From a virus (taxonomy: Duplodnaviria; Heunggongvirae; Uroviricota; Caudoviricetes): a stretch of 4,280 bases of DNA. The stretch spans positions 1 through 4,280 of IMG/VR virus record IMGVR_UViG_2711768167_000005. One strand, 5' to 3'. Numbering within the stretch: the stretch's first letter is position 1; every line of letters begins with the position of its first letter. Shown piece after piece: positions 1,315-2,225 of the stretch. Below the pieces are notes generated by a model. It was not told where the DNA came from and did not search any database. It saw only the letters and a program-made list of their open reading frames with translations. A program made the translations under genes and the position numbers.

Positions 1315-1713
1315 TCACTTTCCTTTTCCCTGAAGCATTGCGGCGCGACAGGCATTCCAGCCTGTCGCGTATGCAGCTGCTTTGCTACTGCCTCCAACAG
1401 GCGCATCCTGCCAATACATTTCTTCTGGCACTGACGGCACTGACGCCCCAGACAGCAAAGCCTCAGCCATACACATTGCTTCCAGTCCTGTAGCCTCAGC
1501 AATACCGTCACGAATAAGCTCAAGCCCCTCTTTTGTTAACAGTTTCATTCCTTTATACATGACGGGCACCAGCGGTTCTGCTTCCAGCAATGCCAGTGCA
1601 ATTCGTGCCAGTTCTTCCGCTTCTTCTGCTGGCAATACAACGTTGCTACCAGGTCCGTATGTTTCGCGCCACTGCTGGATTGTCAGCAGTCGCTCTTTGG
1701 TAATAGTGATCAT
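1315..1713 (-). CDS. Hypothetical prophage-type protein (132 aa); paralog A2
   Basis: ATG at 1713..1711 in an ATGA overlap with the stop of the upstream nuclease-fold gene (1712..1710). N-terminal 47 aa are near-identical to the 137-aa protein; the C-terminus is distinct and ends ...GWNACRAAMLQGKGK. Confidence 0.65.
   Translation of the reverse strand: MITITKERLLTIQQWRETYGPGSNVVLPAEEAEELARIALALLEAEPLVPVMYKGMKLLTKEGLELIRDGIAEATGLEAMCMAEALLSGASVPSVPEEMYWQDAPVGGSSKAAAYATGWNACRAAMLQGKGK
1572..1713. repeat. Direct repeat copy 2 (142 bp, about 93% identical to 741..882)
   Basis: Same manual alignment as for 741..882. Covers the 5' end of the 132-aa gene. Confidence 0.85.
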
Positions 1714-2225
1714 GCTGCGTTTCCTTCTTTCTTATTAACAATTACACCGTCATATATTTCATTAAGGTGCCCTCTCAACTCCATGCGCCTTAATGCAGAT
1801 AACATGTAATCGCATTCAACCTGCTTATTTCCAGTAAATGGCTTATCGTCAGGATTACCCCAACAGCAATTACCCCTGGGCCACCCATGTACTTTCCGTA
1901 CTCTTCCGTTAACAACGTGAAGTAATCCCCAGCCAGGTGGTAAATCCTCAATTGAAATAATTCCCGGCTCACTAATAAAGAATCGCCAGTCGCCCATTCC
2001 AAGAGATGGATTTTTACGAAAACGCTTTTTTCTATCTGCCAACAAGTCAGCACGAGAACATTTCGCCTCTATCAGGCATGATGCTGAATTTCTGAATCCC
2101 ATAGCATCTGGCTGTTCTCCGGTACTGGTTACAGCTATAAAGCGGTCATGAAAACAAACCTTGAACCCGTTGCGCTTAAGGAACTTGTACGCAATCTGAC
2201 AGAGTTCGCGGTGTGTTAACGCCAT
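1710..2225 (-). CDS. Putative PD-(D/E)xK nuclease-fold protein (171 aa), possibly MmcB-like
   Basis: Start trimmed from the track ORF 1710..2306 to the ATG at 2225..2223, preceded by AAAGGAGAG and 1 nt after the upstream TGA. Residues ...GEQPD(40)AMGFRNSASCLIE(53)AK(55) fit the PD...(D/E)xK catalytic spacing. The family name is from memory and unverified. Confidence 0.6.
   Translation of the reverse strand: MALTHRELCQIAYKFLKRNGFKVCFHDRFIAVTSTGEQPDAMGFRNSASCLIEAKCSRADLLADRKKRFRKNPSLGMGDWRFFISEPGIISIEDLPPGWGLLHVVNGRVRKVHGWPRGNCCWGNPDDKPFTGNKQVECDYMLSALRRMELRGHLNEIYDGVIVNKKEGNAA

Follow-up and report, generated by a model that had tools for sequence, protein, structure and literature searches.

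Locus and gene

The window considered here is a stretch of 4,280 nucleotides (nt) from the IMG/VR virus record IMGVR_UViG_2711768167_000005 (Caudoviricetes), positions 1 to 4,280 of that record. On its minus strand it carries a gene for a protein of 171 amino acids (aa), which we study as a candidate nuclease of the PD-(D/E)xK fold and a relative of the MmcB-like proteins. The window is 99.5% identical to 25 Escherichia coli chromosomes, where it lies in an accessory stretch of an integrative and conjugative element (ICE) of the SPI-7/PFGI-1 type, inserted at a tRNA-Ser gene beside the kps capsule locus. The ICE flank encodes ParA, DnaB-PI, ParB, DUF2786, and DUF2857 on one side and STY4528, topoisomerase III, TraD, and pilus genes on the other. 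According to megablast, phage resemblance is limited to window positions ~732-3055, which match Shiga toxin (Stx)-converting lambdoid and P1/P7-like phages in pieces of 95-97% identity; the ParE-like and DUF2857 genes to the right belong to the ICE backbone. Because only this part resembles phage DNA, we place the gene in a mosaic of ~2.3 kb, of the phage 'ea-region' type, that was captured by the ICE. The main features are:

732-3055, minus strand: phage-derived 'ea-region' cassette carrying the nuclease candidate (megablast against phages; ICE context in the E. coli locus L001)
1710-2225, minus strand: coding sequence of the MmcB-like PD-(D/E)xK nuclease candidate, stop codon at 1710-1712 (translation, homologues, ratio of nonsynonymous to synonymous substitutions (dN/dS), and AlphaFold2 model)
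2232-2237, minus strand: Shine-Dalgarno box AAGGAG, 6 nt before the ATG at 2225 (sequence reading)
1710-1713, minus strand: ATGA stop/start overlap with the downstream 132-aa open reading frame (ORF) at 1315-1713 (sequence reading)

Direct translation of window 1710-2225 yields 171 amino acids and a stop, and the residues D40, E53, and K55, to which a sequence-only reading of this DNA had drawn attention, are all found where it had placed them. The ATG at 2225 begins 1 nt past the TGA of the upstream, Ea22-like ORF, and the AAGGAG box is located within the final codons of that ORF. Taken together, the box, the 1-nt gap and the M-A-L-T-H beginning shared by homologues point to this ATG as the real start. 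A 198-aa version initiated at TTG, which appears in the mechanical ORF list, lacks support, since homologues begin at the MALTH position. On the minus strand, neither a promoter nor a terminator-like site of the gene's own rises above the shuffle background; in combination with the ATGA overlap, this places the gene inside a long operon of co-directional genes and implies translational coupling.

Close homologues of the protein number 316. An exhaustive search with a hidden Markov model (HMM) retrieved 3,294 representatives (50% clustering) at E <= 0.001, mostly stand-alone, and most of them have 150-180 aa and are matched almost over their full length. A median dN/dS of 0.07, obtained from 110 pairs among 64 coding sequences of phages, indicates purifying selection. 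The 171-codon gene is genuine and under selection.

Public annotation gives a different picture. In E. coli chromosomes including O157:H7, RefSeq records processed by the Prokaryotic Genome Annotation Pipeline (PGAP) list only the first 59 codons, as a 'frameshifted' pseudogene (L001 22004-22182 and, in a second E. coli locus, L087 5338-5516, corresponding to window 2047-2225). We reject pseudogene status: the ORF is intact, without an internal stop, and identical or different by 1 aa in L001, L087, and phage P7. For the same reasons, the 59-codon frameshift label is a systematic annotation artefact. The RefSeq record of P7 (NC_050152.1 upf89.0) names the same gene 'minor tail protein', and the exact protein is 'hypothetical' on at least 648 contigs. 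Scans of the protein with Pfam and NCBIfam gave no match, and neither collection contains a model for its family.

Putative active site, predicted fold, and relationship to MmcB-like proteins

The putative active site is encoded by the following positions:

1980-2147, minus strand: catalytic core block, residues 27-82 (conservation, secondary-structure positions, and column-wise match to PF06319 proteins)
2106-2108, minus strand: codon of D40 (translation)
2067-2069, minus strand: codon of E53 (translation)
2061-2063, minus strand: codon of K55 (translation)

The core block starts with D27 (E in most relatives), which closes strand 1, followed by G36-E37-x-P39-D40. It continues with strand 3, holding E53-x-K55, and then with S57-R58-x-D60-(F/L)61..D64-x-K66-K67..R70..G76-x-G78..R81-F82. 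Conservation was assessed in 121 representatives, down to ~35% identity. D40, D60, G78, and R81 are invariant among them, and at least 90% conservation is found for H5, L8, E37, P39, G43, E53, K55, S57, R58, F61, D64, K67, R70, G76, P96, W99, G100, L101, and E137. The sequence-only reading had made its case depend on the retention of the catalytic residues in homologues, and all of them are retained to this degree.

The bare PD-(D/E)xK motif, taken alone, is weak evidence: the loose pattern D-x(8-25)-hhh[DE]xK arises in 15% of 20,000 shuffles of the protein, and the stricter form with P-D in 1.2%. What raises it above chance is the conservation of its residues, to which purifying selection and the predicted fold add.

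The AlphaFold2 model, built on a 64-sequence alignment, has a predicted local distance difference test score (pLDDT) of 88.9 and a predicted template modeling score (pTM) of 0.83. It consists of a helix (5-18), three strands (23-26, 41-45, and 48-54), a second helix (58-64), a strand (80-85), and a C-terminal part with two further strands and a long helix (134-151). The predicted core is thus alpha-beta-beta-beta-alpha-beta, as the PD-(D/E)xK superfamily requires. P39-D40 directly precede strand 41-45, and E53-A-K55 stand at the end of strand 48-54; in the model, D40 opening strand 2 and E53-x-K55 closing strand 3 form the canonical arrangement of this superfamily. The confident model and the motif placement therefore support the fold that had been proposed from the sequence, where a non-nuclease fold would have spoken against it. 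A Foldseek search against the Protein Data Bank returned nothing significant and missed 3DNX, the structure of SPO1766 of Ruegeria (Silicibacter) pomeroyi.

According to a 2012 survey of the superfamily (PMC3424549), 3DNX is the structure of DUF1052, i.e., PF06319 or COG5321. A 54-aa piece of SPO1766 retrieves PF06319 proteins only (truncated), some of which are named 'MmcB family DNA repair protein'; full-length PF06319 proteins for comparison were drawn from annotated plasmids and chromids. Against the 3DNX sequence, a profile of the close family reaches E 0.15 and a profile of the broad family E 2.3e-5. In hhalign, the broad profile matches PF06319 fragments with 96.2% probability (E 2e-9) and three full-length PF06319 proteins, for which the Pfam model gives 129-265 bits, with 95.6% (E 1.3e-8, 85 columns). 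The closer-family profile aligns to the same three proteins with 88% over 103 columns, reaching the C-terminal helix. The paired columns include the strand-1 acid, the catalytic D, E-x-K, and S-R-x-D-F..D-x-K, as well as R-F of strand 4 and the (L/F)-P...G-L strand.

The PF06319 signature after strand 3, E-x-K-x-S-(R)-x-D-F-x-x-D-x-K-W, is present in the window protein with W replaced by K. The protein reads E53-A-K-C-S-R-A-D-L-L-A-D-R-K66 and its family consensus IECKxSRxDFLADxKK, where PF06319 proteins have ECKSSRADFxSDxKW or EIKxSxxDxxxDxKW. However, the PF06319 HMM gives no match for the window protein at E <= 0.1, and not one of the 121 family members reaches the gathering threshold of 22 bits. 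Sub-threshold matches occur in 36 of them (best E 2.9e-4), and the best individual scores in the family are 18.5 and 16.9 bits, compared with 62-265 bits for true members. The family also has sequence features of its own: G-R-R-A-D of the MmcB-like proteins is replaced by E-x-P-D, strand 4 is preceded by an insert bearing K-K-x-F-R..P..G-M-G, a G-W-G-L-L motif is present, and ~20 residues (114-133) are inserted ahead of the last helix. Since homology is found at the profile level, yet the PF06319 threshold is not reached and these features set it apart, we assign the window family to the PD-(D/E)xK clan as a sister of MmcB-like and do not count it as a member of PF06319. The resemblance to MmcB-like proteins to which the sequence-only reading had pointed thus stands as homology, though as that of a distant sister. 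We regard the PD-(D/E)xK fold and the MmcB-like relationship as very probable.

A further difference concerns the genomic setting. True MmcB-like genes are chromosomal, mostly alpha-proteobacterial, and lie beside L,D-transpeptidase and ActS/ActR, whereas the window family is carried in the early operons of phages from Vibrio and enterobacteria, of phage-plasmids, and of an ICE. On Sinorhizobium pSymB and Rhizobium p3, we observed true PF06319 genes between L,D-transpeptidase (YkuD) and actR/actS, beside malate synthase G, a setting that reproduces the DUF1052 co-occurrence noted in the 2012 survey. A 458-aa protein on a Bacillus cereus plasmid carries an MmcB-like domain at its C-terminus.

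The role of MmcB is known from Caulobacter genetics only. In Caulobacter crescentus, it is an SOS-regulated PD-(D/E)XK endonuclease required for tolerance of mitomycin C and cisplatin, hypothesized to act with translesion synthesis on crosslinks (PMC9578287).

Among phages, structural matches in BFVD include proteins labelled 'MmcB-like DNA repair protein' or assigned to PHROG 5429 'DNA repair protein', e.g., in Acidovorax phage ACP17, Dickeya phage JA13, and Ackermannviridae. These labels are similarity transfers. The Ackermannviridae homologue, a 'DNA repair protein' according to one depositor, is 45% identical over residues 4-103, has only its N-terminal ~105 residues in common with the window protein, and has no Pfam match itself. 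The window protein's own PHROGs (9263 and 631) differ from PHROG 5429 in being families of 'unknown function', the only kind of PHROG match obtained.

Distribution and neighborhoods

At nucleotide identities of at least 95%, the gene is present in 931 of 5,426 complete E. coli genomes (about one in six); a genome may hold as many as six copies, and 250 copies lie on plasmids. Phage records with relatives number 641, distributed over Vibrio, Salmonella, Stx, Klebsiella, and Dickeya phages and Ackermannviridae. In an O157:H7 prophage, the gene order is cIII-kil-gam-bet-exo-...-TraR/Orf73-like-Ea22-like-nuclease candidate-...-DUF551-xis-int, corresponding to the exo-xis segment of the PL operon. 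In P7, the gene is Upf89.0, follows an Ead-like gene and belongs to the C1-operator-controlled hea operon.

Diverged neighborhoods were sampled in 67 IMG/VR loci with copies 58-74% identical. They are extremely mosaic, their 748 neighbor proteins falling into 458 clusters. Recurrent neighbors are either Ead/Ea22-like proteins, excisionase, and integrase or, alternatively, NinB, NinG, NinX, RusA, DnaB, ParB-like proteins, and terminase; none of the window's own neighbors recurs beside the nuclease gene in these loci. Longer family members are fusions to a TniB-like ATPase, a MazG-like pyrophosphohydrolase, DUF551, or, in Salmonella, an Ead/Ea22 N-module. We rejected the fusions as a clue to a pathway, as each is rare and they have no common theme, mirroring the mosaic neighborhood. 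The gene moves as a single-gene unit and is expressed from the early operons of mobile elements. Among the accessory genes of E. coli phages it is a widespread one, without a name and often mis-annotated, and in the window it has ended up in a conjugative element.

Further features of the window are:

738-882 and 1569-1713: the two copies of a 145-nt direct repeat, 93% identical, with a spacing of 831 nt
2227-2826, minus strand: GTG-initiated chimeric ORF of 199 aa, directly upstream of the nuclease candidate
3031-3243: ORF headed by an Ead/Ea22 module
3240-3416, minus strand: next ORF, an acidic 58-aa protein (phrog_519)
3423-3671, minus strand: 82-aa protein with ParE-like toxin domain (PF24732, E 1.6e-19)
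3668-4246, minus strand: ICE backbone DUF2857 gene (STY4526-like)

The 199-aa ORF combines an N-terminal Ead/Ea22 module (PF13935, residues 2-88, with C-x-x-C...C) with a C-terminal domain of ~95 aa (phrog_11761) that has a Walker-A-like GFTGCGKS and weak APS-kinase/AAA matches; in L001, PGAP divides it into two pseudogene fragments. An ATPase-nuclease pair with this chimera was considered and rejected, because the P-loop domain stands beside the nuclease gene in none of the 67 diverged loci. Salmonella proteins of 240-252 aa carry the nuclease domain behind an Ead/Ea22 module of ~60 residues and are annotated 'ead/Ea22-like family protein'. Since a module of the same kind heads both these fusions and the window ORFs 3031-3243 and 2227-2826, it may be a portable adaptor or recombination linker ahead of varied C-terminal domains.

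Downstream of the nuclease candidate, the direct repeat encodes ~48 N-terminal residues common to a 137-aa and the 132-aa ORF (M-x-T-I-T-K-E-R-L-L-T-I-x-Q-W-R-E-T-Y-G-P-G-S-N-V-V-L-P-A-E-E-A-E-E-L-A-R-I...), both of which PGAP calls truncated pseudogenes. P7 matches window 743-2259 in only 686 bp, exactly 831 bp shorter, and hence has one repeat copy without the unit between the repeats. This pattern looks like module shuffling via recombination at common N-terminal 'linker' sequences.

The ParE-like gene directly follows the DUF2857 gene, with an ATGA overlap, and no recognizable antitoxin is adjacent to it. The DUF2857 protein has marginal matches to FlhD and to DrmC of PADLOC (E 7e-4).

At the other end of the window, positions 1-43 have no match to L001 at all, and positions 44-117 show 21 differences, many of them to C, with a run of 12 C at 61-72; the remaining 4,160 nt hold a single mismatch to this locus, which apart from 44-117 is 99.98% identical. 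Positions 1-117 seem to be a contig end that is chimeric or of low quality, or else to mark an abrupt boundary of recombination.

Candidate function and its meaning

As a whole, the explanation we prefer, and consider moderately likely, is an endonuclease of the MmcB sister family that acts on DNA structures or lesions in the service of its carrier element. The product would be a single-domain, divalent-metal-dependent DNA endonuclease. Its active site would comprise D40, which opens strand 2, and E53-x-K55, which closes strand 3, and two conserved acids, D27/E and E37, probably contribute. The DNA would be held by a conserved basic/polar patch flanking this site, consisting of S57, R58, K66/K67, R70, R81, R146, and R147. 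Cleavage would depend on DNA structure or on lesions, as in branched, stalled, or damaged intermediates, rather than on sequence, and the enzyme would serve replication, recombination, or repair of the element. The gene itself is an autonomous cassette of one gene; in early operons of temperate phages it is co-transcribed, with translational coupling.

These parts differ in strength. Catalytic activity we take to be likely. Structure- or lesion-specific cleavage, with a role in replication, recombination, or repair, is a tentative proposal. It is suggested by the lack of a recognition domain, methylase, or conserved partner, by the nearest relatives, which are MmcB and then Hjc-type junction resolvases, and by the phage contexts, two regions holding the recombination functions Red, NinB/Orf, Rap, and RusA. 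Among the roles that the sequence-only reading had offered, we favor recombination or repair with the same reserve and keep defence, exclusion, and degradation of host DNA as a rival.

This rival, a one-gene exclusion or defence effector acting on competitor DNA or a takeover enzyme degrading host DNA, appears unlikely. PD-(D/E)xK nucleases are common defence effectors, and structural neighbors of the model include Can2, Card1, and restriction enzymes. The gene is also highly mobile, up to the six copies per genome mentioned above, found in prophages, phage-plasmids, and an ICE within accessory DNA rich in morons, and located in the window directly behind the ORF with the Walker-A-like motif. 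Yet this P-loop neighbor does not recur, and the protein lacks both a conserved partner and any domain for sensing or specificity. Among the 5,027 models of PADLOC-DB v2, no family matches the nuclease at E <= 0.1, and its neighbors have only marginal matches. A type II restriction-modification system would include a methyltransferase, but the window has none, and although one Vibrio phage has an adjacent methylase, no methylase cluster is among the recurrent neighbors in the 67 loci. Furthermore, the gene is promoterless and embedded in early lytic operons (PL, C1-repressed hea) that are silent in the lysogenic state, and it occurs in virulent phages, too.

A homodimeric Holliday-junction resolvase of the Hjc type, resolving four-way junctions in recombination and packaging of the phage or ICE, is likewise doubtful. 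Hjc (PF01870; 1HH1, 2WCW) is a minimal PD-(D/E)xK nuclease of similar size, and I-P-D ... L-I-E-x-K-S-R around the active site is common to it and the nuclease family. PF01870 (gathering threshold 21.1 bits) gives sub-threshold matches for 65 of the 121 representatives (best 17.7 bits, E 1.3e-4) and no match for the window protein. Against a resolvase speak the co-occurrence of the gene with RusA and NinG and the predicted structure of the protein, which appears to be much closer to 3DNX.

It is improbable that the product is a counter-defence factor which destroys a nucleic-acid component or signal of host immunity early in infection or transfer. Early expression and the wide spread over unrelated phage types and an ICE fit an anti-defence pattern, and the exo-xis region is reported to affect host physiology and the lysis-lysogeny decision; however, the searches made revealed no likeness to any described anti-defence protein, and the nearest relatives are nucleases of DNA repair and of junctions. 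A protein that binds DNA without catalysis and retains only the nuclease fold is very improbable: inactivated PD-(D/E)xK domains exist in other families, but such derivatives normally lose catalytic residues, whereas here more than 100 diverse representatives keep all the canonical ones with little or no variation, under strong purifying selection.

For the MmcB-sister endonuclease, then, fold, superfamily, and nearest family were already known, and some distant phage relatives had been labelled MmcB-like by similarity. As an annotation the result is sound but incremental, adding a sister family to a known kind. The exo-xis papers searched do not mention a nuclease ORF, and papers containing 'MmcB-like' are genome annotations only. 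Should the protein prove to be an active nuclease, a name and a testable activity would be given to a 'hypothetical' gene that is very common in Shiga-toxin prophages, P1-like phage-plasmids, and conjugative islands, and the biochemically uncharacterized MmcB/DUF1052 clade would gain an easily expressed enterobacterial model. The gene lies within the lambdoid exo-xis region, which is reported to influence prophage induction, and a nuclease specific for lesions or structures in this region could be of consequence for Stx prophage replication after DNA damage.

Beyond this, there is a small chance that the family is a dedicated, early-expressed nuclease with a specific mobile-element function so far undescribed, which could be incision at crosslinked or blocked forks or the countering of host immunity. 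Fork incision would allow an induced prophage or a transferring ICE to replicate even though its template has been damaged by the very SOS-inducing agent that activated it. Either function, if true, would add a new class, defined by function, to the phage accessory genes and provide the first biochemical handle on MmcB-type enzymes.
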